Sequence record: PZ445437.1
Source of the DNA: a phage
DNA length: 64,000 nt
Direction: 5' to 3' (one strand)
Shown here: positions 22,657 to 40,898 of the stretch, in pieces
Position numbering within the stretch: the first letter of the stretch is position 1
Layout: the number at the start of each line of letters is the position of its first letter
Translations under genes and position numbers: made by a program
The notes under the pieces: model-generated
Told to the model about the DNA's origin: nothing
The model's input: the letters and a program-made list of their open reading frames with translations, nothing else
Databases searched by the model: none

Positions 22657-23621
22657 TGTATTCTTTAGAGGAATTTAATAATCAAGCAATAAACGCAGAT
22701 TTCCAACGTAATAATATGTTTAGCTGCGTTTTTGCGACAACTCCATCAACTAAAAGCTCTTCGTTGATAAGTTCAATTAGCAACTTTTCTTATAATAACT
22801 TGGGTCTAAATTCAGATTGGTTAGGATTGACTCAAGGCGATATTAATCAGGGAATTACCACACTAATTACCGCTGGCACACAAAAACTGATAAGAAAATC
22901 AGGGGTTAGTAAATATCTTATTGGTGCCATGAGTCAACGTACAGTTCAAAGTTTATTGGGCTCATTTACAGTTGGTACATATTTAATTGACTTCTTTAAC
23001 ATGGCATATAACTCATCTGGATTGATGATATATTCTGTAAAAATGCCAGAGAATAGATTATCCTATGAAACTGACTGGAACTATAATTCTCCTAATATTC
23101 GTATAACTGGGAGAGAATTAGACCCTTTGGTTATTTCATTTAGGATGGATTCAGAAGCTTGTAACTATCGTGCGATGCAAGACTGGGTTAACGCTGTTCA
23201 AGACCCAGTAACTGGATTGCGTGCTTTGCCACAAGATGTCGAGGCAGATATTCAGGTTAATCTTCATGCTCGTAATGGATTACCTCATACTGCGGTGATG
23301 TTCACTGGATGCATTCCAGTGTCAGTGAGCGCTCCTGAGTTATCATATGATGGAGATAACCAAATAACTACATTTGATGTTACTTTTGCGTATAGAGTCA
23401 TGCAGGCTGGGTCGGTTGATAGACAAGCTGCGCTTGAGTGGCTTGAATCTGCTGCTATAAATGGCATTCAAAGCGTTCTCGGAAATAGTGGAGGTGTTAC
23501 TGGATTATCTAATTCGCTTTCACGACTTAGTAGATTAGGGGGAACTGCTGGAAGCATTTCAAACATTAATACTATGACAGGAATTGTCAATTCGCAAAGT
23601 AAAATATTAGGAGCAATATAA
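22656..23621 (+). CDS. 54: baseplate tail tube initiator gp54
   Basis: 321-aa ORF at T4 gene 54 position. Confidence 0.92.
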   Translation: MYSLEEFNNQAINADFQRNNMFSCVFATTPSTKSSSLISSISNFSYNNLGLNSDWLGLTQGDINQGITTLITAGTQKLIRKSGVSKYLIGAMSQRTVQSLLGSFTVGTYLIDFFNMAYNSSGLMIYSVKMPENRLSYETDWNYNSPNIRITGRELDPLVISFRMDSEACNYRAMQDWVNAVQDPVTGLRALPQDVEADIQVNLHARNGLPHTAVMFTGCIPVSVSAPELSYDGDNQITTFDVTFAYRVMQAGSVDRQAALEWLESAAINGIQSVLGNSGGVTGLSNSLSRLSRLGGTAGSISNINTMTGIVNSQSKILGAI

Positions 23622-23625
23622 CAAT

Positions 23626-23655
23626 GGGGACCGAAAGGTCCCCATATTTTTATTT
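23626..23655 (+). terminator. rho-independent terminator after gene 54
   Basis: GGGGACC-GAAA-GGTCCCC hairpin + ATATTTTTATTT. Confidence 0.7.
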
Positions 23656-23940
23656 ACGGAATGAAATAAAAGCAGCAACTGAAGCAACTAAACTGTCTTC
23701 AATATAAACTTCAATTTTTACCGGAGCTTCTGACTCAAATTTACCTGTTACTACACCTTGGAAAATGCTTTCAGTCTGTTCTGGCTTTGAAAAATTTTCA
23801 GAAGGAAAAATTCCGAACTTTTTATCTGTTCCAAAAATTTTGATAAATTCATCATAAACTGCTTCATTAAAAGCGTTATCAGCAGGAATAACGCCTTCAA
23901 CTACAAGTTCTTGACCTAAAAAGCGTAAAGAAGATTTCAT
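23650..23940 (-). CDS. hypothetical protein (T4 alt.-3 position)
   Basis: 96-aa ORF with ATG and GAGGA SD, downstream of the Alt genes. Confidence 0.75.
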   Translation of the reverse strand: MKSSLRFLGQELVVEGVIPADNAFNEAVYDEFIKIFGTDKKFGIFPSENFSKPEQTESIFQGVVTGKFESEAPVKIEVYIEDSLVASVAAFISFRK

Positions 23941-23971
23941 TTTATGTTCCTCATGTTATGTCAGTAAGATT

Positions 23972-24000
23972 ATTATAACACAACACGAGGGACTTGTAAA
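23972..24000 (-). promoter_or_regulatory. sigma70-type early promoter (TTTACA-17-TATAAT) for the alt.-3-position gene
   Basis: minus strand GTTTACA agtccctcgtgttgtgt TATAAT; 54-bp cassette duplicated at 39254-39307. Confidence 0.65.
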
Positions 24001-26058
24001 CTACATCTTGAACTTTTTAGACATTCCGTTGATGTTAACCAAAGAAGCCAAGATTTGAGAAACTTCGTTTTCCTCTTCTTTTGATTCTTCTACAAGGAAT
24101 TGATTAAACCCGGCCATTGGACGAACTTCGCCAGTTTCCATTAGATGATCGCCATCATATACCGATTCTTCTAATTGTTCAGAAGGAGGAACGATTGTGC
24201 CTTCGATTAGATACTTGTTATAAGCAGTTTCTTTCATCATGTACGTGCTTACTTTATTAATCTTCAACAAAATTCCACGCGGTAGAATAACTTCAGCTTC
24301 TGATGGAAATCCTGATAAATGACCTGGAACGATAACTTTGATTCGCTCAGCTCCTTTAATTACCATACCCACGCTAGTTTCAGCATCTTCATTAGCATAT
24401 GTAGAATGACTACCCATATGCATCAAATCTTCTGCATCAACAGAACCTTCTCCTTCGCCAGAAAATACTGCACCGGAATCATCTAGAGCCATATAGTTTT
24501 TACCATGCTCACCGAAGATATTTGGTTTAAGTGATGTCGATACGAAGTTCTTGAAATAGAACATTTTATTTTCAATATTGTGACGCAAAGTTTTAAAGGT
24601 AACTTCTTGTCCACGGTAAAGTGTAGTTCCTGGAGGAAGAACTGAACCTTTAGCGAATGCAGAATCCAGCGTCTCAATATGTTTAATAGCTCGTTCCATA
24701 TATTCTTCACGGGTAGAATCTGGTTTACCCAAAAGGAACGAGTTCATTTCAACATATGAATCTGCGCAATAATCTTCAATTACGTCAGATTCAGCCTGAG
24801 TTAATCCTTTTGGAGTTACTTCAGTACTTGCATATTCATATGCCTGAGCGGCAGATTCATTAATCAATTTATAAATGCCATTCATGACAAATTGAATAAT
24901 AGCTGTCTTTTCATCTGGCGTAGCTTTAGAACCTTTAACTAAATCATTGATAATTTTCTTAATAACATCAAAACTATTAGAAATATTAATATCAGCAAGA
25001 TCGCTTAAAATTTTATCAGTTTTATAATCAAAGAATTCTTTATTCTTTAAATATTCTTGAGAACCTTGATATGATGTATCGCTCTGCAACTTGATAGATG
25101 GATCACGTAAACGCGCATGGGCTAATGCAATATGATTTCGGAAGTTTTCTAGTTCATAATCGTTAGATTTAAAACGAGAAGCACTTCTCATACCACCGAT
25201 AGCTCCTTTGCCGAAGTTTGAACCAATCTGAATAACGCCAGAGTTCATTGGTCCTTCTGCTTTATATACCGGAACTTTGGATTCAAACTCTTGATATTTC
25301 TTAGCAGCGAAGCTATCACCCTGAAGTGAAGCATCAACAGTAGAATATTGAGCTTGTGCTGCTAATCGACGACTAATTTTAGTTTTCTGAATAACAGCTT
25401 GATCCGTGCGCTTATCATTTTCCAAAGCAATAGAAGCAGCAACTGCGACAGCTTTAGGAACAGCATTACCTGTTTTAACGTCTACATAAACATCACCAAC
25501 CTTTGATTCAACTTTTGTGAATAACTCAGTTGAAATAGGAGGTACACCTGGAATGTCTTCTAAATTGGCATTTTTACGGTAAACCATAATATATGCATAT
25601 TTCTTATCATAGTCCCAGATTTCCTTTAAAAGAACATATCGACCTGCTCCTTTAGTACGTACTAAACGGTCAGCAATAACTTGCATTTGACGAGCAGCGC
25701 CATTTGTTTTACTCTTTAGTACGCGGAATAAGCATGCATCAATTTTATACTGTTTCATTGTTTGAAGAGCAGTATCAAAAACAGCATTAATGACGCCAAT
25801 TGGATTTCCACCCAAGTTTTTAAGCTTAACTAATGATAGTTTCTCATTAACACCTATCATTACGATATGCATCATTTTGTCGCCTGGCTTAACGTTTTTA
25901 TTCGTATCACCGCCAGAGGTGTATGTACAAAATCTAAATCCAGGAAGCACGCTTTCTTCACCGGCTTGAATAGCAAAAATTTGTGGTATTTTATGCTTAG
26001 GATTTAAGTTAACAACCGGCGCCGAAGCGCCGTCAAATAATTCTGTAATAAGTTCCAT
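24001..26058 (-). CDS. Alt-like ADP-ribosyltransferase, second paralog (packaged internal protein type)
   Basis: 685-aa ORF; N-terminus MELITELFD...NLNPKHKIPQIF near-identical to Alt; C-terminal R (LYRGQ), FVSTSL and EAEVILPRG motifs. Confidence 0.85.
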   Translation of the reverse strand: MELITELFDGASAPVVNLNPKHKIPQIFAIQAGEESVLPGFRFCTYTSGGDTNKNVKPGDKMMHIVMIGVNEKLSLVKLKNLGGNPIGVINAVFDTALQTMKQYKIDACLFRVLKSKTNGAARQMQVIADRLVRTKGAGRYVLLKEIWDYDKKYAYIMVYRKNANLEDIPGVPPISTELFTKVESKVGDVYVDVKTGNAVPKAVAVAASIALENDKRTDQAVIQKTKISRRLAAQAQYSTVDASLQGDSFAAKKYQEFESKVPVYKAEGPMNSGVIQIGSNFGKGAIGGMRSASRFKSNDYELENFRNHIALAHARLRDPSIKLQSDTSYQGSQEYLKNKEFFDYKTDKILSDLADINISNSFDVIKKIINDLVKGSKATPDEKTAIIQFVMNGIYKLINESAAQAYEYASTEVTPKGLTQAESDVIEDYCADSYVEMNSFLLGKPDSTREEYMERAIKHIETLDSAFAKGSVLPPGTTLYRGQEVTFKTLRHNIENKMFYFKNFVSTSLKPNIFGEHGKNYMALDDSGAVFSGEGEGSVDAEDLMHMGSHSTYANEDAETSVGMVIKGAERIKVIVPGHLSGFPSEAEVILPRGILLKINKVSTYMMKETAYNKYLIEGTIVPPSEQLEESVYDGDHLMETGEVRPMAGFNQFLVEESKEEENEVSQILASLVNINGMSKKFKM

Positions 26059-26061
26059 GAT

Positions 26062-28158
26062 TTATCCTTGAACGAACTTGTAAGGCATGTTTGTAATATC
26101 TATGCAAGACGCAATAATTCCAAGAGATGATTCTACTTTCTGTTTAACGTTTGATGAAACAAATGATGCAAAGTCAACTCTGTCTTCTATTTCAATATCA
26201 CCTGTCATTGCAACTACTTCGCCGGTTTCCATTAAATGGTCTCCATCATAGATTACCGATTCGGTGAGCTCTTCCGTGGTCATAACTTCAGCTTGAATGA
26301 GTTTTGTATTATTAGACGTGGTTCCGTCATTATTAGAAGCATCAGTTATTTTATTAACTTTGACCATCAATCCGCGCGGTAGAATAACTTCAGCTTCTGT
26401 TGCTATTCCGAGACTTCCTGGATATACAACATTAACTTTATGAGCTCCATCAATTGCCCATCCTATTTGAACTTTAACGTATTCAGGATTTTCTTTATAC
26501 GCTCTTATTTCGTTTGGATTAATAGTTATTCCTTCTTCATTTTTATCAACTGTCAATTCATTACGAGCTTCTGGTTCTAAAAGACCAATACCAGCATGTG
26601 TAATTCCAAAACGTCCAAAAATGATAGGAGTTAAAGAAGTAGATACAAAATTTCTGAAATAGAACACTTTATTTTTAACTAGTGCTTCGTATATAGGAGC
26701 AGTCATACTTTGAGCACGATAAACTGTGATGCCTTCCGGTATGCGGTCACCATTTTCAAAAGCTGAATCTAAGTTATTTATAGCAGATTCAATTTCTTTT
26801 TCACTCATTACATCATATCGTTCTGGATTGTAACGACCTAAAAGAAGATTATTGATGTCAGTATATCCTGAACCACAATATTCTCTAATGCCACGCTTTT
26901 GTGATGGAGTATATTTAGAACCATCGCGGGCAATAGTAATATCAATCATTGGACCAGCACCAATTCCAGAAAAACTGTAAATCATTCGTTTGAGGAATTT
27001 AGTTTTTGCTGCGTTCCAGGAATTTTTAGTTATTTCTTCCCAGACTTCATCTGGTTGTCCTTTACGATTTTTATTATGATTAGCAAGCCATTTATCTTTA
27101 TAATCTTCAAAGAATTGATTTACAGCTGCTGCGTATTTCTCTAAACATTTTATTGAAGTAGTTGGTTCATTTTTAATTGCATTAAAAATTACTTCTTTAA
27201 TTTTTTCTGAAACTTCACCGACTTGACTCATTGGAAAGAATTTATAATCATAGTGAAGTTCATCTGCCGTTCCTTCAGCAATAATTTTTGCTGCCTTTGT
27301 TTTAGAAGCTAATGAATTAATTCCAATTTTCATTTCTTCTGCTTCGGGAATTAAAGGTGCAGTAGCAGGTTTATTGAAATTAGCTGCGGTAGATTCATAC
27401 TTCTGGAATAATTCACTTTCAAATCTAGAAGATTCCAATGATTGACTTTGCGCAATTGCTCTACGGGAAATTTTAACTTTAACGATTACAGCTTGGTCAG
27501 AACGTTTATCATTTTCTTGTGCAATAGATGCTGCAATTGCCTCATTTTTAGTTACTTGAGCTCCAGTATCTTTATTGATATAAACATCGCCGACTTTCGA
27601 TTCAACTTTAGTAAAGAGCTCGGTACTAATTTCCGGAACTCCTGGAATGTCTTCTAGTGATACATTTTTGCGATGTATAAGAATATATGCATACTTTTTA
27701 TCATAATCCCAGAGTTCCTTAAGAAGGACGTATCTGCCACCTGAACGACTACGGATAAGTCTATCAGCAATAACTTGAATTTGTCGAGCTTGACCAGCGG
27801 TTTTAGACTTAAGAATACGAAGCATACAAGCATCAATTTTATACTGACGCATTGTTTGCATTGCAACAGTAAAAACTGAATTGATATAATTAATTGGGCT
27901 TGGACCGAGACCTTTTAATTTAGCAATTGAACCTTTGGCAGTTAATGTAAAAGGAACAATATGCATCATTTTATCGCCCATCTTTAAATCGCGATTAGTA
28001 TCACCTCCAGATGTATAGGTGCATAAACGAAAGCCTGGTTGTTCAATTGCATCATCAACACGAACTGAAAAAATTTGCGGTATTTTCTTCTTTGGATTTA
28101 AGTTTGTAATCGGAAGAGTAGTATCTTCGTCAAATAATTCTGTAATAAGTTCCATCAT
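26062..28158 (-). CDS. alt: Alt ADP-ribosyltransferase
   Basis: 698-aa ORF MMELITELFDEDTTLPITNLNPKKKIPQIFSV... recognised as T4 Alt; R (VYRAQ), FVSTSL, EAEVILPRG motifs. Confidence 0.93.
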   Translation of the reverse strand: MMELITELFDEDTTLPITNLNPKKKIPQIFSVRVDDAIEQPGFRLCTYTSGGDTNRDLKMGDKMMHIVPFTLTAKGSIAKLKGLGPSPINYINSVFTVAMQTMRQYKIDACMLRILKSKTAGQARQIQVIADRLIRSRSGGRYVLLKELWDYDKKYAYILIHRKNVSLEDIPGVPEISTELFTKVESKVGDVYINKDTGAQVTKNEAIAASIAQENDKRSDQAVIVKVKISRRAIAQSQSLESSRFESELFQKYESTAANFNKPATAPLIPEAEEMKIGINSLASKTKAAKIIAEGTADELHYDYKFFPMSQVGEVSEKIKEVIFNAIKNEPTTSIKCLEKYAAAVNQFFEDYKDKWLANHNKNRKGQPDEVWEEITKNSWNAAKTKFLKRMIYSFSGIGAGPMIDITIARDGSKYTPSQKRGIREYCGSGYTDINNLLLGRYNPERYDVMSEKEIESAINNLDSAFENGDRIPEGITVYRAQSMTAPIYEALVKNKVFYFRNFVSTSLTPIIFGRFGITHAGIGLLEPEARNELTVDKNEEGITINPNEIRAYKENPEYVKVQIGWAIDGAHKVNVVYPGSLGIATEAEVILPRGLMVKVNKITDASNNDGTTSNNTKLIQAEVMTTEELTESVIYDGDHLMETGEVVAMTGDIEIEDRVDFASFVSSNVKQKVESSLGIIASCIDITNMPYKFVQG

Positions 28159-28178
28159 AGCCTCTCTAGTGTTTATTC

Positions 28179-28186
28179 TATTTATA
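28179..28186 (-). promoter_or_regulatory. late promoter TATAAATA (minus strand) for alt
   Basis: plus TATTTATA; ~20 nt upstream of alt ATG. Confidence 0.6.
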
Positions 28187-28191
28187 AAATT

Positions 28192-28209
28192 AAAGGCCCG
28201 AAGGCCTTT
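28192..28209 (-). terminator. hairpin between ligase-proximal ORF and alt (candidate early-transcript terminator)
   Basis: AAAGGCC-CGAA-GGCCTTT stem-loop; weak U-tract on minus strand. Confidence 0.35.
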
Positions 28210-28396
28210 AATAATCTATTGGTAAGAGAGTACGATATATTTCAAACTTTGGACCTTTTTCATAAGCATCAAAAGTTTCTGTGAATTTATTATAAGCATA
28301 TGCATCTATAAATTCAATCATGATTTGTGATACAGAAGTAGAAACATCTCCACCTTCTTTTTGAGCCACGACAATTGTTTCTAAGTAAGCTTTCAT
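28208..28396 (-). CDS. hypothetical small protein between DNA ligase and alt
   Basis: 62-aa ORF, ATG overlapping ligase stop (ATGA). Confidence 0.6.
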   Translation of the reverse strand: MKAYLETIVVAQKEGGDVSTSVSQIMIEFIDAYAYNKFTETFDAYEKGPKFEIYRTLLPIDY

Positions 28397-29856
28397 AGAC
28401 CAGTTACCTCATGAAAATCACCAAATACATCTTCGAATGTATTAGCTTTAGTTTTATCTTCACGTAAACGAATCGCAATCGGAAGAAATAATTTAACGTA
28501 ATCAGTGCGGCCATCGGATTTTAACCAACCGTTGCATTCGCACTCTAGAATTTTTCCAATATAATAATTTTGGTTTTCCATAATGCGAGTACGGTCAAGT
28601 TCATGTGATTTTACGCCGGCTTTATCTTTTAAGCCTGAACCGGCATTTACCTTAATTTTTCCACACTCTGACTCAAGAATAAATCCACCTGCTTTAGTAG
28701 GGTCTTTACGGTGAGGATAAATTCCTACAATTTTTAAATCAACATCAATTACTTCTTTAAATTTATAGAGATTTTTTGAACGAGCATTTTCCCATAATCC
28801 ATCGATATTTTTGAGAATAATACCTTCAAGACCTTGGTCAATATACTTTTTATAAATTACCTTAGCTTCATCTAGGTTATTTACTACTTGGTTTTCAATT
28901 AAAATTACTTTATCATATCCTGATGTCATTTGTTCTAATTTAGAAAAACGTACATCATATTTTAAACGAAATGCTGGAAGACCGTATATTTCTACCAACG
29001 GAACATAATCCCAGACCTGAAACTTCATGCATTGAGCTTCTTTTTCTGAAATAGTTCCCTTTAAAGATTTATTAGCGATTCCATTAGAAGTAGTACGTGA
29101 TTCAGCTACTTCAGCAAACTCTTTAGCTTTACTAATTTCAGGATAAGCATCAAAAAGAAAATCTAGGCCTTCTGGCTCCTTTTTAACTTGCTCATGGTAT
29201 ACCAATTCGCCATCAATTAACACACCTTCTGGATGAATCTGGCGGGCTTCAGCGGTCATTTTGATTAACTCTTCCTTAAGAAGATCTAATCCTAGATATT
29301 CATTACCAGCTCGTGATAAAAGACGGACATCATCTAATTCATCACCTCTAACTTCAGCAAAACACCGAGCTCCATCTGCTTTTAATTGTGCAAAGGCTGG
29401 AAATTTGATATTCTTACTAATGCCTTTTTCATCATAAGAACTTGCGAGCATTTGAGGTTGTTCAGGAATTAAACCTGGCCAAACTTTGTTTGCAATAGAT
29501 ACTGAAGCACCACATTCAAGGTCTCGCATCATCACTCGACGCAAAACTTCAACATCATCTTTTTTACCATCAGTGATATATCCAGTTAATTCCTCAATTG
29601 CCGCATTTCCAGTCAATTTCCGAGTAGCTAACGTGAATTCAATGAAGTCAAGCATATCGGTAAGAGTCAACATTCCAAAACTCTGGGTAGCAATACCAGA
29701 TTTAGGCCATTTCTTGATATAATACTGCAACCCACGAGAATAAGTCAGACGATATACTCGTTTAAGCAATTCATTATCTTTATTCTTTTCAAGAATTGCT
29801 TGCTTCTGCTTAGTTGAACCAATAGATGCTATTTCGTTCAGAATTTTAAGAATCAT
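28393..29856 (-). CDS. 30: ATP-dependent DNA ligase gp30
   Basis: 487-aa ORF recognised as T4 DNA ligase (MILKILNEIASIGSTKQKQAILEKNKDNELLKRVYRL...; KADGAR adenylation motif). Confidence 0.97.
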   Translation of the reverse strand: MILKILNEIASIGSTKQKQAILEKNKDNELLKRVYRLTYSRGLQYYIKKWPKSGIATQSFGMLTLTDMLDFIEFTLATRKLTGNAAIEELTGYITDGKKDDVEVLRRVMMRDLECGASVSIANKVWPGLIPEQPQMLASSYDEKGISKNIKFPAFAQLKADGARCFAEVRGDELDDVRLLSRAGNEYLGLDLLKEELIKMTAEARQIHPEGVLIDGELVYHEQVKKEPEGLDFLFDAYPEISKAKEFAEVAESRTTSNGIANKSLKGTISEKEAQCMKFQVWDYVPLVEIYGLPAFRLKYDVRFSKLEQMTSGYDKVILIENQVVNNLDEAKVIYKKYIDQGLEGIILKNIDGLWENARSKNLYKFKEVIDVDLKIVGIYPHRKDPTKAGGFILESECGKIKVNAGSGLKDKAGVKSHELDRTRIMENQNYYIGKILECECNGWLKSDGRTDYVKLFLPIAIRLREDKTKANTFEDVFGDFHEVTGL

Positions 29857-30122
29857 TGTTCATCCTTTAGAGTTTGGTTTACAGCTCTATTATAAATCAA
29901 TTCATCATTAAGCTCAGTCAAAGACCTATGGTACGTGGTTCTAACTTTATTTCCTTGCATCCAGTGTTTGACGTAAATGAAACCTTGCTCTACACATTTT
30001 TTAAAAATTCGTTCGTCTTTTTGAGCTCGGAATTCTGGATTGCATCTAAAAAATTGATTTACGTGACCGTAATCACGTGTAGTATTACCTTCATTTTCAT
30101 AAATAGTGTGAACAACAAACAT
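29853..30122 (-). CDS. hypothetical protein (T4 30.1 position)
   Basis: 89-aa ORF, ATGA overlap with ligase start region. Confidence 0.7.
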   Translation of the reverse strand: MFVVHTIYENEGNTTRDYGHVNQFFRCNPEFRAQKDERIFKKCVEQGFIYVKHWMQGNKVRTTYHRSLTELNDELIYNRAVNQTLKDEQ

Positions 30123-30949
30123 TAGAATGCTCCTTGGAAAATATTATCACCACTAGTAGGTCTATTATACAAATACTCTATGCCACCAGGTTTAATATAG
30201 TTCCATGTCTGAAACGGATGTGTCTGATATGGATTATAAGGATTAAATCCAGGAGTTCTCCAGGTAGTGTTCCAACGAAAAGAATCATTTTTAATCATCT
30301 TTTCAATTACATCTTTTATAGCTTTTTCACTATCAAAACTTTCTTTATTTTCCTTTGGTGAAAAAAGCTTATTCTCTACATCGTTCCATGTATAAACTCG
30401 CTGAGCGGTTTTTGGAATACTGTCACGTTCCCCTCGAGCCATCCAATACACAGGAACACGTAATATTTCACTCGCATGATCGCAGTGGTGAGCGAGATCG
30501 TCAATATAACAAATTACGTTATATTTCTCTTTTGCCTTTTTGAACAACTCTTCTTTTGAAGAATCATGACCACACATCATTACTTCTGAGAAGGCACCAG
30601 GAAAAAGAGCATTCAAATTAAATTGACGATTCAGCAGAGCGTCAATAGAATCACCCAATGCTGTAACAGCTACAAAATTATAATCTTCTTTTAATTTGTT
30701 AATTACACACAGGGCATCTTTATATGGAGACAAGTAACGAATAAAATCTGAACGATTGTATTTTTCAATTAGCTTAACGCCAAGCTCTTCATCGCAATTA
30801 AATAGTTTACCTGGAGAGATAAATTTCTCATCTTGGATCATTTTTAAAATATGTTCCAACGGAAGATTATATTTCTGAGCAAAATAAGGAAGACCTGATT
30901 GCCAGCTTAAACATACTCCATCAATATCAGTTAAAATAGTAGGCTTCAT
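30122..30949 (-). CDS. HAD-superfamily hydrolase-like protein (T4 30.2 position)
   Basis: 275-aa ORF; N-terminal LTDIDGV (HAD motif I DxDG[TV]) and later ICYIDDL (motif IV). Confidence 0.75.
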   Translation of the reverse strand: MKPTILTDIDGVCLSWQSGLPYFAQKYNLPLEHILKMIQDEKFISPGKLFNCDEELGVKLIEKYNRSDFIRYLSPYKDALCVINKLKEDYNFVAVTALGDSIDALLNRQFNLNALFPGAFSEVMMCGHDSSKEELFKKAKEKYNVICYIDDLAHHCDHASEILRVPVYWMARGERDSIPKTAQRVYTWNDVENKLFSPKENKESFDSEKAIKDVIEKMIKNDSFRWNTTWRTPGFNPYNPYQTHPFQTWNYIKPGGIEYLYNRPTSGDNIFQGAF

Positions 30950-31404
30950 AGAGAGTCTCTTAATAGGTTTAACACATCAATAAATTCAGCTTCGGTTAGT
31001 ATTGTATCATCTTTTGTTAGATCACTAGCCATGCTGTGCTTCAAAACTTTTCCTTTCGAGGCTTGTAATGCATCACGAAAGCCCTTGTTTTGGATCGCTG
31101 CTTCAAAATATGCATTTGTGTATAATTCTTTCCACGCCGGGGAGTATCTTGAAAACGGAACTCCAAGCCAGAAGAGGGTCCCACGGTCCTGAGCTCTAGC
31201 ATAAGACCTTCCAGCTTGTTGGGCGGCAAGCCCGGATAACCCAAATATACGACGTTGTTGTTCAACATTTTTCACCTTACACCCTTGGAGGAATCCTTCA
31301 AGACCTCCAAATTGAATACCATCCATAACGAAAGGCCATTGGGCGAAATTACTTAATGCACATGATGGCCACCTAAAATTACTTCTAATCTCTAACTCAG
31401 ACAT
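30946..31404 (-). CDS. YbiA/NADAR-family protein (T4 30.3 position)
   Basis: motif ALSNFAQWPFVMDG...EGFLQGCK parallels E. coli YbiA FSNFAAWPIKVDG...EHYFQAQK (recalled); ORF-track start is TTG, first ATG at 31404. Confidence 0.7.
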   Translation of the reverse strand: MSELEIRSNFRWPSCALSNFAQWPFVMDGIQFGGLEGFLQGCKVKNVEQQRRIFGLSGLAAQQAGRSYARAQDRGTLFWLGVPFSRYSPAWKELYTNAYFEAAIQNKGFRDALQASKGKVLKHSMASDLTKDDTILTEAEFIDVLNLLRDSL

Positions 31405-31603
31405 TTTCAATGCTTATAATTTCAACATCAGCCCAATGACCATAGCAAGGAAGACGAAATTCAACTGGCCAGTTAGGGTCCTTTTCTAATATAATAGACT
31501 TAACTTGTGGTTCTTCGTGTTCATCAGTATACGGATTTTTATCTGTTACTTTATATGTGACCTTAATGTACTGAATTCCAAAAATCTTATTAATTATATT
31601 CAT
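31397..31603 (-). CDS. hypothetical protein
   Basis: 68-aa ORF, ATG, translationally coupled in 30.x operon. Confidence 0.6.
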   Translation of the reverse strand: MNIINKIFGIQYIKVTYKVTDKNPYTDEHEEPQVKSIILEKDPNWPVEFRLPCYGHWADVEIISIENV

Positions 31604-31797
31604 ACTAATTCCTTTAATCCGTAGATAGGAGATAATTCATCACCCATACGAAGGTCTTCATTTCCATCTACCCAGGAAACAATATAAGCCTCTTTTATTT
31701 GAATACCACTCCATTTAAATGGAGGTAGAACCTTAGAAATTAATCCAGGTATACCAACTCCCTTTAATTCAACGGTTTGACCTAAAAAGAATTTCAT
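31600..31797 (-). CDS. hypothetical protein
   Basis: 65-aa ORF, ATGA-coupled. Confidence 0.6.
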   Translation of the reverse strand: MKFFLGQTVELKGVGIPGLISKVLPPFKWSGIQIKEAYIVSWVDGNEDLRMGDELSPIYGLKELV

Positions 31798-32084
31798 TAA
31801 AACCTCATCTGAAAACCATGCGATTTAACGTTACCACCGCCAATATCAGAAATATTAATTTCACGCGCAATTGAAGGGTCAATGTCAATTTCACGATTGA
31901 GTTTAGTGATAGCTAAAGTATCGCGCCCATTTACAGTACGGAACTCTAAAGGACAAACCACATCAACGTAGTTTTTAATCGATTCACTAGTAGGCTGCAA
32001 ATGAGCAGGAAGGTCTTTAGGCGCCTTTGAGAAAACCACTTCACAGAAATTTTTGCGGGTATCAAAATAAGTAGTCATAAACAT
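31797..32084 (-). CDS. hypothetical protein
   Basis: 95-aa ORF; GAGGA SD 9 nt upstream of ATG. Confidence 0.65.
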   Translation of the reverse strand: MFMTTYFDTRKNFCEVVFSKAPKDLPAHLQPTSESIKNYVDVVCPLEFRTVNGRDTLAITKLNREIDIDPSIAREINISDIGGGNVKSHGFQMRF

Positions 32085-32101
32085 AATATTTTCCTCAGTA
32101 A

Positions 32102-32128
32102 GGGGCCGAAGCCCCTCATTTTATTTTT
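32102..32128 (+). terminator. plus-oriented terminator-like hairpin inside the minus-strand early operon
   Basis: GGGGC-CGAA-GCCCC followed on the plus strand by TCATTTTATTTTT; on minus strand no U-run. Confidence 0.4.
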
Positions 32129-32492
32129 AAATATCAAATTCGTTAAGAACTACATCAAAGATTGCTTCCAAGTGCTCAGGTTTAGCTTTGTTACTCAGAA
32201 TATGACGAATCCAAGTTTTAACTAAGAGTTTACGATTAGCACCATTCCAGCAAGGATGAGTCCCTAAATCGCGTTGGCGGAAATCATCATCCAGAGCGAT
32301 TTTGAAGTTGGAACCTTTCATCGTGATTGAAACCGTGATACCGTTTTCAAATCGCATATAAACGTAGTTAGGAGTCATATACTGTTCAATTTCGCATACT
32401 GATCCGTTTTGATGTTTCCAGAGGCAAATAGTATCAATAGAACCTGCAATACCATTAGAAACATATTTACGTTCAAAGTTGATGTAGTTCAT
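32127..32492 (-). CDS. hypothetical protein (T4 30.6 position)
   Basis: ORF-track TTG start replaced by ATG 32492 (MNYINFERKY...) with GGAGA SD. Confidence 0.65.
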   Translation of the reverse strand: MNYINFERKYVSNGIAGSIDTICLWKHQNGSVCEIEQYMTPNYVYMRFENGITVSITMKGSNFKIALDDDFRQRDLGTHPCWNGANRKLLVKTWIRHILSNKAKPEHLEAIFDVVLNEFDI

Positions 32493-32528
32493 TTTATTCT
32501 CCAAGATGTTTAATTGCGGTACAGGTAT

Positions 32529-32556
32529 ATAATATCATATCCTGTACCAAAGTAAA
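32529..32556 (-). promoter_or_regulatory. sigma70-type early promoter (TTTACT-16-TATTAT) with 8-bp inverted repeat bracketing -10
   Basis: minus strand GTTTACT...TATTAT; GGTACAGG / CCTGTACC arms at 32518-32525 and 32541-32548. Confidence 0.5.
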
Positions 32557-32559
32557 CAA

Positions 32560-32892
32560 TTATTTTACTACTTTCCAATGCTGCATGTCAAGTTTACCAA
32601 CTTTTTTCATCTTCTCAATTAAGCGTTCTGCACGTTGGCGAGCTGTAACATAATGCCATTCGCCTAATTCATTTTGTTCAATTTTTCCAACGATTACTGT
32701 ATTCAATTCATAAATCCAACCAGTAAAGAAATTATGAACTTGAATTGTAAAGGTGAAATCTGTTCCCATACCTTCTGTTGTTTCTACTTCAATAATATCA
32801 CCTTCAACTGCCATTAAGAACCACATAGTTTCATTATATTTACCATTGAAGCATTTAGTTTTAACTGCAGCGTTCAGATTAATCGTTTTCAT
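32560..32892 (-). CDS. hypothetical protein (T4 30.7 position)
   Basis: 110-aa ORF, ATG with AAGGAG SD. Confidence 0.7.
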   Translation of the reverse strand: MKTINLNAAVKTKCFNGKYNETMWFLMAVEGDIIEVETTEGMGTDFTFTIQVHNFFTGWIYELNTVIVGKIEQNELGEWHYVTARQRAERLIEKMKKVGKLDMQHWKVVK

Positions 32893-32919
32893 TTTATTCT
32901 CCTTTGTTTGTGTAAGATA

Positions 32920-32948
32920 ATACTATCACAAAGGAACTATACTGTAAA
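32920..32948 (-). promoter_or_regulatory. sigma70-type early promoter (TTTACA-17-TAGTAT) with inverted repeat covering spacer and SD
   Basis: minus TGTTTACA gtatagttcctttgtga TAGTAT; arms TCCTTTGT/ACAAAGGA at 32900-32907 and 32928-32935. Confidence 0.5.
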
Positions 32949-32968
32949 CAACTTTATGCAATCTTTGG

Positions 32969-32997
32969 AAAATAAAAAAGGACTCCCGAAGGAGTCC
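32969..32997 (-). terminator. rho-independent terminator (minus strand) after the small basic protein gene
   Basis: GGACTCC-CGAA-GGAGTCC hairpin followed on minus strand by UUUUUUAUU. Confidence 0.65.
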
Positions 32998-33002
32998 TCA
33001 AC

Positions 33003-33221
33003 TTATGCTTTCTGCTTACCAAAACGAGAAGCATCATCTCGAAGAACCGCACGTGCTCGGCGCATGATCTTCTCAACAGTTTGATTGATACGAGAGTTCG
33101 ACCCACGCTTGTAACCAGCGCGTTTAGAATCACCAACTTTCTTTTCAACTGCTTTCTTTGCTTTAACTTGTTTTGCCATTATAAATTCTCTTTTAAATGA
33201 AAATGCAGGACTTATTGGCAT
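33003..33221 (-). CDS. small basic (Lys/Arg-rich) protein (T4 30.8 position); start uncertain (33221 or 33179)
   Basis: ORF with ATG at 33221 and internal ATG 33179 (MAKQVKAKKAVEKKVGDSKRAGYKRGS...). Confidence 0.55.
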   Translation of the reverse strand: MPISPAFSFKREFIMAKQVKAKKAVEKKVGDSKRAGYKRGSNSRINQTVEKIMRRARAVLRDDASRFGKQKA

Positions 33222-33400
33222 TGCCTGCGCAAGCCCTCAAAGGGGTACTTAGGTTTTGAATATTTACCGACAGGATAACCATAAACCTCGTCATCATACC
33301 ACCAAGACTTACACAGATAACACTTTTCTGACGCATGATAGTAACATTCAAGAGGTACACCATAAAACTGCCGGGGTCTTAAAACTATAATGATTCGCAA
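33212..33400 (-). CDS. hypothetical Cys/aromatic-rich small protein (T4 30.9 position), TTG start only
   Basis: 62-aa ORF with no in-frame ATG; start is TTG in ORF track. Confidence 0.35.
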   Translation of the reverse strand: MRIIIVLRPRQFYGVPLECYYHASEKCYLCKSWWYDDEVYGYPVGKYSKPKYPFEGLRRQCQ

Positions 33401-33468
33401 ATCATTAATCAGACAGTTCGATGGCTCCTCGATTTTAGCTCACACTAAGGCAGTGAATCTCCAATAAA

Positions 33469-33717
33469 TTACTTCAATGTTACCACAAAGTGACGAACTG
33501 CTTTTCGTGCAGCAGAAGCCAGAGGCTTAGCATACTTAAGTTCATCTTTTTCCTGAAGCTCAGCAGCTAATGCAGTTTGAGCAGGATTCAGATGTTTGAA
33601 ATAACGCAGGATTTCAAGAGCTTCGGCTTCAACATCAATAGATGCGCCATAGTTTTCGTGACCATTATTCCATGCGTTTCGTTGCAGTTCAAGAGCGTGT
33701 TGTAATTGTTTAATCAT
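33469..33717 (-). CDS. rIII: rIII lysis-inhibition accessory protein
   Basis: 82-aa ORF recognised as T4 rIII (MIKQLQHALELQRNAWNNGHENYGASIDVEAEALEILRYFKHLNP...). Confidence 0.93.
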   Translation of the reverse strand: MIKQLQHALELQRNAWNNGHENYGASIDVEAEALEILRYFKHLNPAQTALAAELQEKDELKYAKPLASAARKAVRHFVVTLK

Positions 33718-33835
33718 TTAAAAATTCTCGTTAGAGATTAAAACTCGGTAGTCACGTTCTTCTGAATTTCATCTTCTTTCGACAGATCTCTCAGTTGTAG
33801 ACTACCACATAGAATTGAAACTCAATTCATATTAT

Positions 33836-33843
33836 TATTTATA
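33836..33843 (-). promoter_or_regulatory. candidate late promoter TATAAATA (minus) upstream of rIII
   Basis: plus TATTTATA immediately after gene 31 stop, ~120 nt upstream of rIII. Confidence 0.4.
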
Positions 33844-34179
33844 TCACTTATAAAGACACGGAATAGCTTTATAGTGACAAGTAACGAATTTTTGTTTAAT
33901 TTCTTTTGGCTGCTTAAGACCCAGAGCTACAAAAGGATGCGGAACATTTCGAATTTGACCAACTGGAAGAGAAGTCAAATCGCCAACTTCGCAGAAACCT
34001 TCAGGAACATCAGGACCAACAGAGTGAACTACACACAGTTCAGGAACTTCACCTTGAACACGTTTACCGATAATAAGTCCTGATTCTGTAACTTCTTCAT
34101 CACCGGCTTGTGCAGGTTCAGAAACTAAAATAACATATTCACCGACAGCACGAATTGGTAGCTGTTGTACTTCAGACAT
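33844..34179 (-). CDS. 31: gp31 co-chaperonin (GroES analogue for gp23 folding)
   Basis: 111-aa ORF recognised as T4 gp31 ([48 protein letters not shown]...). Confidence 0.95.
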
Positions 34180-34209
34180 CGTTTTTCCTTTTTGTTAACA
34201 GATGAATTA

Positions 34210-34234
34210 ATAATAACAAATAATTCTTAAAGCA
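34210..34234 (-). promoter_or_regulatory. candidate MotA-dependent middle promoter for gene 31
   Basis: minus strand aaTGCTTTA (MotA box) - 12 nt - TATTAT. Confidence 0.45.
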
Positions 34235-34235
34235 T

Positions 34236-34544
34236 TTATTTACCAATAAATTGAAGCAAATGCTCAACTTTCATACCATTAACAGAAATCAATTTGTCAA
34301 TAGAAAAACCTCGCCATGCACCAAGCTCAACATCAAACACTGGAATCATGTCAGTAGATTCTTTCCGAGTAGATTCAGTCAATTTACCAGTTTGCATGGT
34401 TGGCATAAAGTCTGCATCACGAGTACCTTTCATAGTACGAATAGTACCATCAGACTTTTCAAAAACTACGTTTGAAACACCCATGGACAATTTAGTTTTC
34501 AAAATTTCACGAATTGCTACTTTCTGCTCAGTTGTCAGTTTCAT
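34236..34544 (-). CDS. hypothetical protein (T4 31.1 position)
   Basis: 102-aa ORF with ATG. Confidence 0.7.
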   Translation of the reverse strand: MKLTTEQKVAIREILKTKLSMGVSNVVFEKSDGTIRTMKGTRDADFMPTMQTGKLTESTRKESTDMIPVFDVELGAWRGFSIDKLISVNGMKVEHLLQFIGK

Positions 34545-34781
34545 TTATTTACCTATTACAGTTTTAATATGAGTTGTTCCACGTTCTTTAAGGGTGGAAA
34601 GTAATTTTTGGCATTTTTCTAAATCAGATTTCCAACTATATGGTCTATCAATACTAGTCCAATCAGTTTTATAATACTGTTTCCATTTAGAGAAAAAATA
34701 TTTCTTATACTCTACAGCAAATGAGATGTTCTCGTTAGAATAAGAACTAATTGCTGTGAGCTTTACCAAACGAAATTTCAT
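34545..34781 (-). CDS. hypothetical protein (T4 31.2 position)
   Basis: 78-aa ORF with ATG. Confidence 0.65.
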   Translation of the reverse strand: MKFRLVKLTAISSYSNENISFAVEYKKYFFSKWKQYYKTDWTSIDRPYSWKSDLEKCQKLLSTLKERGTTHIKTVIGK

Positions 34782-35362
34782 TATTCACCACAGAATTCGT
34801 TGATATTTTCCCAGTTTAACTTATTCAAGTTTTTCTTGGGAACATTAAACACTTCAATACCTGCATTTCGCAGAATATCATCCCAGCCAGGTTTATTTTT
34901 ATCATATGTTTCGCAATAAACCAGCTTTTTAATACCAGATTGAGCTATCGCTTTTGCGCAATCTGGACAAGGAGAAAGTGTTACATACATAGTAGCACCT
35001 TCAATAGAAGAACCATTTCGTGCAGCAAACAAAATTGCATTTAGTTCAGCATGAATTTCATTTTTAGACGACCATTCAGAGTGAGCGCTACGGTGTTCTT
35101 TCGCCAAGACAAAGCGATCAGTTGAACCAAATGATACGCATTCAGGCTTATGGCCTTGGATGATAGTATGTTTAGGTTTATTCAGCAACCAACCTTGCTC
35201 AGCGGCATAATCACAACAGTTCACACCTCCTGCGGGTGAACCGTTATACCCAGTAGAAATAATACGTCCATTCTTTTCAATTACTGCTCCTACCTTCCAG
35301 GAGCAACATTTTGATTCTTGTGATACTAAATATGCAATTTGAAGTACTGTACTCGCTTTCAT
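34781..35362 (-). CDS. cd: dCMP deaminase
   Basis: 193-aa ORF with zinc-deaminase motifs HAELNAI and PCPDCAKAI. Confidence 0.93.
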   Translation of the reverse strand: MKASTVLQIAYLVSQESKCCSWKVGAVIEKNGRIISTGYNGSPAGGVNCCDYAAEQGWLLNKPKHTIIQGHKPECVSFGSTDRFVLAKEHRSAHSEWSSKNEIHAELNAILFAARNGSSIEGATMYVTLSPCPDCAKAIAQSGIKKLVYCETYDKNKPGWDDILRNAGIEVFNVPKKNLNKLNWENINEFCGE

Positions 35363-35697
35363 TTCATAATCACCAGATAAGCAGATTTAGCAGTTTCAAC
35401 ACGATAAATTTCATGACGAAGTTTAGTTATACTTTTAATAACAGAACTAATTATATTCTGTCCGTCTTTAAAGCGGTTTTTCTTATCAATAAAAATTGCG
35501 CCAACCATCTTTTTGTGAAGCTCAACTGGATACTTCGTCACAATAATAGCATCATATACAGAAGGATGAATACTATTTACTAGAGTGTCATTCATTAAAG
35601 TTATTCTAATGAACTGTGCTGTTTCAGAGTCAAGCGCTCTATGATCGCCAGTATCATTTTCAAGACAATTATCAATTATATCAGTTAAATTCATCAT
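35359..35697 (-). CDS. hypothetical protein (cd.1 position)
   Basis: 112-aa ORF, ATG. Confidence 0.65.
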   Translation of the reverse strand: MMNLTDIIDNCLENDTGDHRALDSETAQFIRITLMNDTLVNSIHPSVYDAIIVTKYPVELHKKMVGAIFIDKKNRFKDGQNIISSVIKSITKLRHEIYRVETAKSAYLVIMK

Positions 35698-35933
35698 AGT
35701 ACGCCATACACCCTTTGTGCTTCAACTAATCCATCAAAATCCAGTTTAAGATGCGATATTTGATCGCCATCACCTGGATTCACAATTACTAATACTGAAC
35801 GAGGAGTTTCGGTAATAACACGAACCGATGTTTCAGGAAATCGTTCAGAAACCTTATTTACCAATTCCTGAGCAAATAGTTTAACTTTTTCTTGGAATTC
35901 TTTAACAGTAATTGGTTTTTCACTTAGCAGCAT
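35694..35933 (-). CDS. hypothetical protein (cd.2 position)
   Basis: ORF-track TTG start replaced by ATG 35933 (MLLSEKPITVKEF...) with GAGGA SD. Confidence 0.6.
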   Translation of the reverse strand: MLLSEKPITVKEFQEKVKLFAQELVNKVSERFPETSVRVITETPRSVLVIVNPGDGDQISHLKLDFDGLVEAQRVYGVL

Positions 35934-35994
35934 TTTGTTTTCCTCATTTGTTTGGTAGAGCCATAATATCACAACTCTACCGTAAAGTAAACTA

Positions 35995-36270
35995 TTAAAT
36001 CGCTTTGAATTCCGCAGTTTGAGATTCAAAGCGAATGTCGCCTTTGATAACTAACTCAGCATCAAGACCGAATACGACAATGATATGCGCGGAACCTGGA
36101 TACAGCGTAATGGCAACAGAATCCACCTGGTCTGGAAGCAAAGTGTTTAATACATGAGTCACTTGAGCATGGATTCGAAGCTCGGCTGCGTTATCAAGCT
36201 TTTCAAACATATTATTAGCGATAATTTGACTAAACACTACTTCTACGATTTTAGAATAAGTCGGAAACAT
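35995..36270 (-). CDS. hypothetical protein (cd.3 position)
   Basis: 91-aa ORF, ATG. Confidence 0.65.
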   Translation of the reverse strand: MFPTYSKIVEVVFSQIIANNMFEKLDNAAELRIHAQVTHVLNTLLPDQVDSVAITLYPGSAHIIVVFGLDAELVIKGDIRFESQTAEFKAI

Positions 36271-36272
36271 AT

Positions 36273-36473
36273 TTACCTCACATAATTTTCTTCAAGCCAA
36301 TCAATAACATCCAAAGCGTTATCAAAAGTTGAACCATCTACTTTGTCTTCTGTTTCATAATCAAGAACATCTAAGCCTACTCTTCCGTCAACAATAGGCC
36401 ATAAACAAAATAGATATTTCTTTTCTTTTTCAATTTTATCACAAAGACGATAAATCTTTTCTATGTTATTCAT
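36273..36473 (-). CDS. hypothetical protein (cd.4 position)
   Basis: 66-aa ORF, ATG. Confidence 0.6.
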   Translation of the reverse strand: MNNIEKIYRLCDKIEKEKKYLFCLWPIVDGRVGLDVLDYETEDKVDGSTFDNALDVIDWLEENYVR

Positions 36474-36662
36474 AAGTTTTCCATGGTAAAGGCAGTTTAG
36501 TTTTCTTTACTGTTAGTTCAACATCAGGATTCTTTTCTCTCAATTTAAGACATTCCTCCCAAGCTCTGATTTCACTAGTGAATACACAAAATTGCCCATT
36601 ACTAGTACCGACTAAACCACTATTTACAATAATAATAGCCCAAGTTTCATGATGCCACGCCA

Positions 36663-36663
<1 letters not shown>
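36466..36663 (-). CDS. hypothetical protein (cd.5 position)
   Basis: 65-aa ORF, ATG. Confidence 0.6.
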
Positions 36664-37875
<1,212 letters not shown>

Positions 37876-37879
<4 letters not shown>

Positions 37880-38112
37880 TTATTTTTCTCAACTAATGAT
37901 TGAATATAATCATGCAGGTCTTTAGATGCTTTACCCCACTTATTTTGATATTCATTTTTGAGATTAGCACGTGATTGAGCTAATAAAACATCATTAGTTG
38001 GAGGTAAAGATTCTAACCGCTGAATCTGGCGTCCATAAATCATTGCAGCCATCTCGGATTCATAAATCAATCCTTTGAGATGTTCAAATTGATGCCATGA
38101 AATCATTTGCAT
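37876..38112 (-). CDS. hypothetical protein
   Basis: 78-aa ORF, ATG with AAGAGGA SD. Confidence 0.65.
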
Positions 38113-38402
38113 TTATCCTCTTTTAACTCTTGACGATAATAACATATCATAGTTTTCTGGTCATGTACATATCGTTTTACATCATTAAGCCAAATACGAA
38201 ATTCCTGGGAATCTTCAAATGGCATACCGACCCAAGCTTTACCATCAATAACTTTAACTTGCCAAGATAGTTTAGCTTCGTCATATGACTTTATTTGTAC
38301 AGGCCAGTTAGGATGAACTGTTTCTTTCTTTACTTCTAGAGGCTTTGTCGAACAACCAGCTAGAAGACCAATAGATAATATTACTGCGGATAGTTTAATC
38401 AT
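38103..38402 (-). CDS. outer-membrane lipoprotein, o-spanin (Rz1-like)
   Basis: 99-aa ORF with signal peptide + lipobox LLAGC; overlaps upstream i-spanin; T4 equivalent recalled as pseT.2. Confidence 0.75.
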   Translation of the reverse strand: MIKLSAVILSIGLLAGCSTKPLEVKKETVHPNWPVQIKSYDEAKLSWQVKVIDGKAWVGMPFEDSQEFRIWLNDVKRYVHDQKTMICYYRQELKEDKCK

Positions 38403-38752
38403 TTAGAAAGATCCTGGATGTCTTCTGCGAACTTGTTGAAGGAGTTGTTGATTTGTTTTTCAACCAATCCTGGCTTATGAGCCACCACATCCGCCTTCTT
38501 TGCGTCTTTGCGCAGTTTTTCATTTTCACGCTCAATAGCAGCAATTGCCTCACGATTTTTATTATTCATCGCATCAATATAATTATACTGAATTCGCAAA
38601 TTATTTAATGCTAAAGCGTTTTCATTGGCTGTTTTTGTAATTTCAGTAACTGATGTTTCTAATCTTTCTACCTTATTTTTTAAAATAATAGATGTTCCGC
38701 CCAACGCAATTACAATTAATAACAAGCCTGCTGTCGTATTACTTAATTGCAT
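38399..38752 (-). CDS. i-spanin (Rz-like): N-terminal TM helix + periplasmic coiled coil
   Basis: 117-aa ORF; hydrophobic segment AGLLLIVIALGGTSIIL then heptad-rich region; T4 equivalent recalled as pseT.3. Confidence 0.75.
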   Translation of the reverse strand: MQLSNTTAGLLLIVIALGGTSIILKNKVERLETSVTEITKTANENALALNNLRIQYNYIDAMNNKNREAIAAIERENEKLRKDAKKADVVAHKPGLVEKQINNSFNKFAEDIQDLSK

Positions 38753-39249: not shown

Positions 39250-39277
39250 AAAGTCCTCATGTTATGTCAGTAAAACT

Positions 39278-39306: not shown

Positions 39307-39310
39307 CAGC

Positions 39311-40898
<1,588 letters not shown>

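Follow-up and report, generated by a model that had tools for sequence, protein, structure and literature searches.

Why should a phage carry the same 54-bp promoter and leader twice, in front of two genes that lie 15 kb apart? The question is raised by a 64,000-nucleotide stretch of phage DNA (sequence record PZ445437.1; the whole stretch is called the window here), which belongs to a T4-like phage of the genus Tequatrovirus and is up to 99.5% identical to several isolates. On the minus strand of the window, one copy of the cassette precedes the gene at the alt.-3 position and the other precedes alc. We conclude, with a probability of about 0.68, that each copy is an immediate-early sigma-70 promoter of the T4 type that carries its own translational insulator, and that the two copies are nearly identical as the result of an alc-type replacement at alt.-3.

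Two near-identical early promoter cassettes

The copies at 23948-24001 (copy 1) and 39254-39307 (copy 2) are identical at 50 of 54 positions, and a repeat search of the window returned them as a two-member family (D11) with 93% identity and a separation of 15,306 bases. The initial annotation of this DNA had already reported two 54-bp copies at these coordinates with four differences, and had read each as a sigma-70-type early promoter with the whole leader and the ribosome-binding site, placed directly before the alt.-3-position gene and alc. Its sequences read as quoted and this description holds, with two details corrected: alc is preceded by rnlA (gene 63), and the stop codon before copy 1 belongs to a second full-length alt paralogue.

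Read on the minus strand, the cassette consists of GTTTAC, an 18-nt spacer, TGn followed by TATAAT or TATAGT, a leader of about 20 nt, GAGG and ATG. If the -35 element is taken as TTTACA the spacer is 17 nt long, and the copies score 11/12 and 10/12 against the sigma-70 consensus. Both have the GTTTAC-type -35, the 17-18 nt spacer and the TATAAT-like -10 with TGn of a T4-type early sigma-70 promoter, and the site of copy 2 carries the annotation 'predicted early promoter' in phage fPS-90. The parts, including the arms of a hairpin described below and the Shine-Dalgarno sequence (SD), are as follows.

23948-24001, minus strand: cassette copy 1, promoter, leader and SD before the alt.-3-position gene; 52/54 match to the Tequatrovirus consensus
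23996-24001, minus strand: -35 hexamer GTTTAC of copy 1; its G doubles as the last base of the upstream alt paralogue's TAG stop
23977-23990, minus strand: 5' arm (anti-SD strand) of copy 1, CCUCGUGUUGUGUU, within the -35/-10 spacer, from the minimum free energy structure
23972-23977, minus strand: -10 hexamer TATAAT of copy 1, TGn before it; top of the hairpin and loop
23965, minus strand: predicted transcription start of copy 1, an A 7 nt past the -10 box, placed by the sigma-70 position rule
23949-23962, minus strand: 3' arm of copy 1, GACAUAACAUGAGG, including the SD GAGG (23949-23952), from folding
39254-39307, minus strand: cassette copy 2, promoter, leader and SD before alc, from sequence search
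39302-39307, minus strand: -35 hexamer GTTTAC of copy 2
39283-39296, minus strand: 5' arm (anti-SD strand) of copy 2, CCUCAUGUUGUGUU, in the spacer, from folding
39278-39283, minus strand: -10 hexamer TATAGT of copy 2, TGn before it
39271, minus strand: predicted transcription start of copy 2, placed by the position rule
39255-39268, minus strand: 3' arm of copy 2, GACAUAACAUGAGG, including the SD GAGG (39255-39258), from folding

The search for further copies that the initial annotation had proposed returned only these two sites in the window and no third, with up to three mismatches allowed and 0 sites expected from shuffles. Beyond the window, a 68-nt query with copy 2 matched 499 phage records at 997 places. 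All are T4-type, T4 included, and each holds two copies, before alc and alt.-3, except one 32-kb record with a single copy; a third copy was found in none of the 499. The copies differ at 1 of 54 positions in T4 and are identical (54/54) in some metagenomic T4-like contigs, and the Tequatrovirus consensus of the cassette is the same at both loci. The cassette is thus fixed in the genus, the reference phage T4 included, and is no peculiarity of the window. Exact-pattern scans yielded five T4-like matches in IMG/VR and nine in metagenomes, the remaining 15-mer matches being chance, and IMG/VR searches with the Alc and Alt.-3 proteins gave no contigs beyond the same few. The polymorphism sample is small, about 12 independent genomes. 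The record with a single copy is GenBank MG010123.1 (Staphylococcus phage SAJK-IND, 32 kb), where the T4 cassette stands at 31824-31877 with 94% identity, probably through contamination or misassembly of the deposited sequence.

How exceptional is the likeness of the two copies? The T4 genome was assembled from five pieces and 35 early-promoter-like sites were compared over 60 nt anchored on the -10 box. The alc and alt.-3 promoters are identical at 54/60 positions; the mean over all pairs is 23.9 (standard deviation 4.4) and the next-best pair, 57990 and 20612, reaches 40/60. The homology between the copies ends exactly at the cassette borders, and identity over the adjoining 60 nt is 47-60%. 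The similarity had been claimed to exceed the early-promoter consensus, with equal similarity between any two early promoters as the refuting observation, and the comparison (54/60 against 40/60) bears the claim out. The same figures dispose of the idea that two strong early promoters simply converged on one optimal sequence, with nothing special about the pair. T4 early promoters do have a common extended consensus of UP element, -35, TGn, -10 and +1 region (PMC2988021), and a leader motif, (A/T)CTTAC, is found in many of them; but the all-pair values in T4 refute convergence, the identical positions extend over the spacer and leader, where other promoters differ freely from one another, and the same loci in other genera carry different sequences. 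We regard convergence as hardly credible and reject it.

A hairpin predicted to mask the ribosome-binding site

In the sense RNA each copy is predicted to form a hairpin whose 5' arm comes from the promoter spacer; the -10 box and the presumed start fall in its loop, and the leader with GAGG supplies the 3' arm. With flanks included the hairpin energies are -24.9 and -28.1 kcal/mol (z about -5), and for the 51-nt hairpin cores they are -21.4 and -24.2 kcal/mol (z -6.6 and -7.2). The stem contains three G-U pairs, and because of them the sense RNA is more stable than the antisense RNA, by 5.5 kcal/mol, and than the DNA form of the repeat, which folds with only -7.5 and -13 kcal/mol. This hairpin had been missed in the initial annotation, and pairing of the promoter spacer with the leader and SD explains the conservation through the leader to the SD that had been noted there. 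Rfam covariance models gave no match at either cassette (23000-40500, E<=1). Elsewhere in that interval the Rhizobiales small RNA Atu_C8 gave a weak match at 32964-33047 on the minus strand, with 31.4 bits against a gathering score of 50; it coincides with an ordinary terminator hairpin (GAGGACTCCTTCGGGAGTCCTTTTTTATTTT), after which comes another GTTTAC site, and was set aside as most likely chance.

RNA that reads through from the upstream gene holds both arms and RNA initiated in the cassette holds the 3' arm only; the 5' arm, placed between -35 and -10, lies entirely upstream of every plausible transcription start. The predicted cost of opening the stretch from SD to AUG in the two kinds of RNA is given below.

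alc of the window: 17.8 kcal/mol in read-through RNA, 3.0 kcal/mol in promoter-initiated RNA
alt.-3 position of the window: 15.0 kcal/mol in read-through RNA, 2.9 kcal/mol in promoter-initiated RNA
alc of T4: 17.3 kcal/mol in read-through RNA, 2.8 kcal/mol in promoter-initiated RNA
alt.-3 of T4: 15.2 kcal/mol in read-through RNA, 1.1 kcal/mol in promoter-initiated RNA

When only the spacer was shuffled, 0 of 100 shuffles matched the observed opening cost. Among 23 T4 early-promoter sites with an adjacent gene, predicted masking was strongest at alc (z 13) and at alt.-3 (z 8.7).

We propose that the spacer encodes a strand complementary to the leader and SD of the gene directly downstream. Polymerases coming from upstream, from rnlA at alc and from alt at alt.-3, would transcribe both arms, and the read-through RNA would fold into a hairpin of 14-18 bp that buries the ribosome-binding site. 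RNA from the cassette's own promoter would start in the loop, past the -10 box, and so would lack the 5' arm and keep its ribosome-binding site open. Synthesis of Alc and Alt.-3 would thus be limited to the first minutes of infection, when their own early promoter is active, and read-through RNA made later would not yield these proteins. On the folding model the most likely effect of the hairpin is that alc, and in Tequatrovirus alt.-3 as well, is translated only from its own immediate-early transcripts; we infer the position of the start, the actual repression of translation and its consequence for timing. The cassettes had been credited with giving the two genes 'identical expression properties', which would be better put as translation tied to the local early promoter by the hairpin.

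Conservation of the predicted masking across genera and promoters

If masking of the alc SD matters to the phage, is it retained where the sequence is not? The alc upstream regions of Tequatrovirus and nine other Tevenvirinae genera were compared. In six of the other genera an anti-SD strand stands right after GTTTACA and the SD is paired, with stem sequences that differ. Their stems and opening costs are listed here.

Karamvirus: stem TCTCCATTTGGTT / AACCAAATGGAGA; 18.1 kcal/mol and, in the spacer-shuffle run, 17.7 kcal/mol
Winklervirus: stem TCCTCATTTCGTT / AACGAAATGAGGA; 14.1 kcal/mol and, in the spacer-shuffle run, 14.0 kcal/mol
Jiaodavirus: stem TCCTCATCAG / CTGATGAGGA; 13.1 kcal/mol in both runs
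Roskildevirus: stem TCTCCTCAG / CTGAGGAGA; 12.9 kcal/mol in both runs
Dhakavirus: stem TCTCCTCAT / ATGAGGAGA; 10.8 kcal/mol and, in the spacer-shuffle run, 10.9 kcal/mol
Gelderlandvirus: stem ATCTCCGTTT / AAACGGAGAT; 10.8 kcal/mol and, in the spacer-shuffle run, 9.1 kcal/mol

Spacer shuffles attained the observed cost at alc in 0-3 of 100 cases in these six genera. The stem covaries upstream of alc: with arms picked by eye, seven of the ten outermost stem pairs have compensatory double changes, and 96.9% of cells are paired, against 42-60% in slid-strand controls. Within Tequatrovirus, five of six independent stem substitutions keep the pairing of the sense RNA (C-G>U-G, G-U>A-U, U-G>U-A, G-C>G-U and U-A>U-G), and the wobble pairs in the stem variants pair only in sense RNA.

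Masking is predicted at other early promoters as well. The T4 regB early promoter (62797) is of alc-like design with an opening cost of 15.6 kcal/mol, and Mosigvirus regB has a covarying stem, TCTCCTCTAGTTG/CAACTAGAGGAGA, at 15.1 kcal/mol (0/100 shuffles); masking at regB is weaker in Jiaodavirus and Karamvirus. The T4 modB promoter (13186) is also masked, at 14.1 kcal/mol, and the site at 75429 before gene 1 reaches 13.2 kcal/mol. We suggest tentatively, at somewhat less than even odds, that an anti-SD strand in the spacer of immediate-early promoters is a conserved and undescribed design of Tevenvirinae, limiting potentially harmful host-takeover proteins to RNA made in the first minutes. 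The proteins concerned would be Alc, RegB, probably ModB and, in Tequatrovirus, Alt.-3. Such a design, if true, would explain how synthesis of these proteins ends despite continuing read-through from upstream, and would make promoter-leader cassettes exchangeable 'timing modules'.

The inverted repeat might instead act in the DNA, as a cruciform or as the site of a dimeric protein that shuts both early promoters off together. It brackets the -10 box, an ideal position for an operator; inverted repeats surround the -10 in many T4 early promoters, and the mechanism of early-promoter shut-off has been described as not understood (PMC2988021; PMC3014915). The G-U pairs, however, weaken the DNA form as well as the antisense RNA, and the stems vary by genus and by promoter with the pairing kept, which is the signature of an RNA helix and not of a conserved protein site. 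We consider action in the DNA very improbable.

Two further observations concern related promoters. Four other early-promoter-like sites on the minus strand of the window, with the -35 at 35992, 32557, 53697 and 8775, have inverted repeats around the -10 (GGTAGAG...CTCTACC, GGTACAGG...CCTGTACC, AGATTT...AAATCT and ATATGA...TCATAT, respectively), none of which extends to the SD; no SD masking was seen at the T4 equivalents of these four sites. At alt.-3 of Kanagawavirus PEi20 the spacer CGAATGAATG pairs with codons 2-5 (CATTCATTCG), with an opening cost of 12.5 kcal/mol and 0/100 shuffles, so that the start region is masked by way of the alt.-3 coding sequence and not the SD.

Origin of the second copy

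How did the same cassette come to stand at two loci? A different promoter type, with a free SD (opening cost 3-6 kcal/mol) and a short hairpin that stays within the spacer, for example CACAAGGATGTG, precedes alt.-3 in Mosigvirus, Gaprivervirus, Gelderlandvirus, Dhakavirus, Karamvirus and Moonvirus. A masked cassette of the alc type is found at alt.-3 only in Tequatrovirus, where it is nearly identical to the alc copy. Since the masked layout occurs at alc in six other genera and is absent at alt.-3 outside Tequatrovirus, an alc-type cassette probably replaced the native alt.-3 promoter and leader near the base of the genus, the direction being read from the architecture. Two motifs common to both promoters bound the homology, GTTTACA on the -35 side and CATGAGGA on the SD side, and recombination at these motifs, already present in both, would have effected the exchange. 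The flanks of alt.-3 are native: AAAATGTA before GTTTACA and, in T4 alt.-3, ACACAAAATG after GAGGA resemble the alt.-3 loci of other genera. A module moved by recombination had been envisaged in the initial annotation, and the comparison of both loci across genera, together with the bounded homology, supports it.

Upkeep of the likeness by gene conversion had been offered as well. Ongoing conversion, that is concerted evolution, would account for copies that are identical at 54/54 positions in some genomes and at 53/54 in T4, and the loci have two polymorphisms in common (G>A at positions 16 and 32); T4 is also generally known to recombine efficiently on short homologies. Both shared polymorphisms are G>A transitions, however, which could recur independently, and the remaining variants are locus-specific. 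The 0-4 differences between copies fit the divergence of 2-3 of 54 positions seen at the same locus between phages without any conversion. The cassette is also no more conserved than its surroundings: between the window phage and T4 the cassettes are 96.3% and 94.4% identical and the coding flanks 96.8%. Conversion is not needed to explain the likeness, and we hold it unlikely as its cause.

Likeness between early promoters is not confined to Tequatrovirus. The alc promoter of Mosigvirus SSE1 has a spacer hairpin of the alt.-3 type, ACACCAAGGAAGGTGT, and the alc and alt.-3 promoters of this phage share GTTTACAAACAC, an unusual -10, TACTAT, and the leader ATCAAYAACAYGAGGA; this may reflect an earlier exchange that ran the other way. 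In Karamvirus, 2-3 places in each genome are related to the alc cassette. The identity of the best match is no more than about 80-84% in two Karamvirus records, where the match is located at regB or near 61.6 kb, and the -10 box and leader of Karamvirus alc (GTGTTACTAT..CT.TACACTAAC) are common to the Karamvirus alt.-3 promoter. Families of early-promoter cassettes therefore recur outside Tequatrovirus.

Masking or termination

A hairpin 11-14 nt past a stop codon could also serve the gene that it follows. It might be mainly a terminator, an attenuator or a stabiliser of the 3' end of rnlA and alt, combined with a promoter for restart, the overlap with the SD being incidental; this is the published reading of promoter-early stem-loop (PeSL) cassettes (PMC2839356). 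The stem-loops of RB49 PeSLs cut lacZ read-through as much as rrnB T1 does and often overlap the -10 (PMC2839356), and the T4 record X04567 of 1986 labels the analogous regB hairpin 'pot. transcription terminator'. The structure of the cassettes argues otherwise. No U-run follows the stem, the tails being ACUUUAUGAUGG and AACAUAAAAUG; a terminator scan found none at either copy, and neither has the G+C-rich stem with U-run of an intrinsic terminator, and A-U and G-U pairs abound in the stem. Although the stems differ, the 3' arm ends on the alc SD in every one of seven genera, a placement for which a terminator has no need. We therefore consider a mainly terminating role distinctly improbable, less so than action in the DNA.

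The RB49 and X04567 evidence nevertheless weighs against masking as the function of the hairpin, which may act as an attenuator beside masking, and several other points weigh on the same side. All energies are equilibrium values calculated in silico, and the start sites are placed by the sigma-70 position rule alone. The choice of arms by eye makes the tally of stem pairs partly circular, with the spacer-shuffle test as its independent control. SD masking is absent at alc in three of the ten genera, Mosigvirus, Gaprivervirus (where alc is duplicated) and Kanagawavirus, and the device is therefore dispensable. As to the origin, identity values do not single out a donor: the T4 cassette is 57-72% identical to both promoter types in other genera.

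Neighbouring genes and other features of the window

The genes around the two copies are listed here.

23650-23940, minus strand: alt.-3-position gene, 96 amino acids, Pfam DUF5498, 100% identical to T4 Alt.-3
24001-26058, minus strand: upstream Alt-like ADP-ribosyltransferase paralogue; its transcripts read into copy 1, with no terminator-like site before the cassette
38743-39249, minus strand: alc, inhibitor of host transcription
39311-40471, minus strand: rnlA (gene 63), upstream; its transcripts read into copy 2, where a terminator-like site is likewise absent; stop TAA at 39311-39313

The alc open reading frame begins at the first ATG (39249); the T4 annotation uses the second, which is 39246 here. 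Alc has been described as an immediate-early product (PMC2988021) and alt as a late transcript (PMC9697503). For Alt.-3, DUF5498 was the only match and no functional link to Alc was found; the literature mentions it solely for mutations that extend its C terminus and escape the CmdTAC defence system (PMC11618068).

Two full-length Alt-like ADP-ribosyltransferase paralogues of 685 and 698 amino acids stand in tandem on the minus strand (24001-26058 and 26062-28158), and repeat families D1, D7 and D9 lie in this tandem with a spacing of about 2.1 kb. T4 has one alt, with the remnants alt.-1 and alt.-2 where the second alt sits here, and HY01 has a full second alt. Between the convergent ends of gene 54 and the alt.-3-position gene, at 23624-23645, a perfect 9-bp G+C-rich hairpin (ATGGGGACC GAAA GGTCCCCAT) with T-runs on both strands looks like a bidirectional terminator. 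Far from the cassettes, at 4419-4513, imperfect repeats rich in GAC, GAA and GAT (family D3) would encode an acidic Asp/Glu tract.

Discussion

What would such a promoter offer the phage? According to reviews, the shut-off of T4 early promoters is not understood and RegB cleavage is credited for only some messages. A promoter that brings its own translational mask would be a simple cis-acting contribution to ending early protein synthesis, as read-through RNA could make no protein once the promoter has stopped. The alt.-3 case suggests that the timing of a gene can be rewritten in one step by a swap of about 50 bp, and gives concrete support to modular shuffling of the PeSL kind. For experiments, the stems of the different genera are ready-made natural arm-swap designs, and for annotation, such hairpins should not be called terminators by default. 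A general 'early-only' translational switch, at alc, regB and modB across Tevenvirinae, would be of greater interest if confirmed by experiment.

Comparison with known systems

PeSL cassettes of T4-type phages were described by Arbiol et al. 2010 (PMC2839356) and Comeau et al. 2014 (PMC4122927), the class being extended to the PST/T4 pair in the latter. Like them, the cassette is an intergenic, strong sigma-70-like early promoter with a stem-loop between -35 and -10 or over the -10, joined to the SD and ATG of the next gene. PeSLs have related copies at several loci, and recombination inside the motif has been proposed as their way of moving or being exchanged; here there are two near-identical copies, with looser relatives among T4 early promoters, and the bounded homology and the inferred replacement of a promoter fit that model. 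Copy 1 also adjoins the variable region of alt paralogues, and the type of alt.-3 promoter varies by genus, as the gene-content and recombination-joint features of PeSLs would have it. The 'portable module' idea of the initial annotation is thus partly right and matches a published class of elements, and the element itself is already in T4; the conserved anti-SD hairpin is the feature that tells more. The differences lie in the hairpin and the setting. In the legend of the PST/T4 figure the stem-loops come immediately before the promoter and are read as terminators, with no mention of SD masking, whereas in the cassette the 3' arm is the SD itself and a terminator signature is absent. The copies flank about 15 kb with essential genes, and unlike adjacent PeSLs they cannot end an excisable mini-circle.

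The predicted masking has its closest counterpart in the T4 genes e, soc, 49 and I-TevI, whose hairpins sequester the ribosome-binding site and contain an internal promoter (Uzan & Miller 2010, PMC3014915). In these genes the SD, the AUG or both lie in a helix of long upstream transcripts, and a promoter within the structure yields well-translated RNA without the 5' strand, which binds translation to one promoter and one time window. The cassettes have the same elements: a predicted pairing of the SD, a promoter that excludes the 5' strand and, at alc, compensatory pairing in seven of ten genera, with hand-picked arms. The documented cases use late promoters and delay translation, whereas here the promoter is an early sigma-70 promoter, the timing logic is inverted and the masking is a prediction.

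The regB hairpin of record X04567 ('imp. inverted repeat D/D'') resembles the cassette in layout, with the anti-SD strand directly after the -35, the -10 in the loop and the SD in the 3' arm, and the design recurs in Mosigvirus with a different stem. Its sequence is unrelated, and its depositors annotated it as a potential terminator. RegB also cleaves its own SD (PMC3014915). With the consensus of T4 early promoters (Pe) the cassette shares the GTTTAC -35, the TGn-extended -10, the A-rich upstream region and the conserved +1 region; this consensus explains about 24/60 positions on average, not 54/60. We found no account of SD masking embedded in an early promoter, for alc and alt.-3 or otherwise, in the searchable literature, outside which most older T4 papers lie. 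The cassette is an early-promoter example of two known T4 devices, and not a new kind of element.

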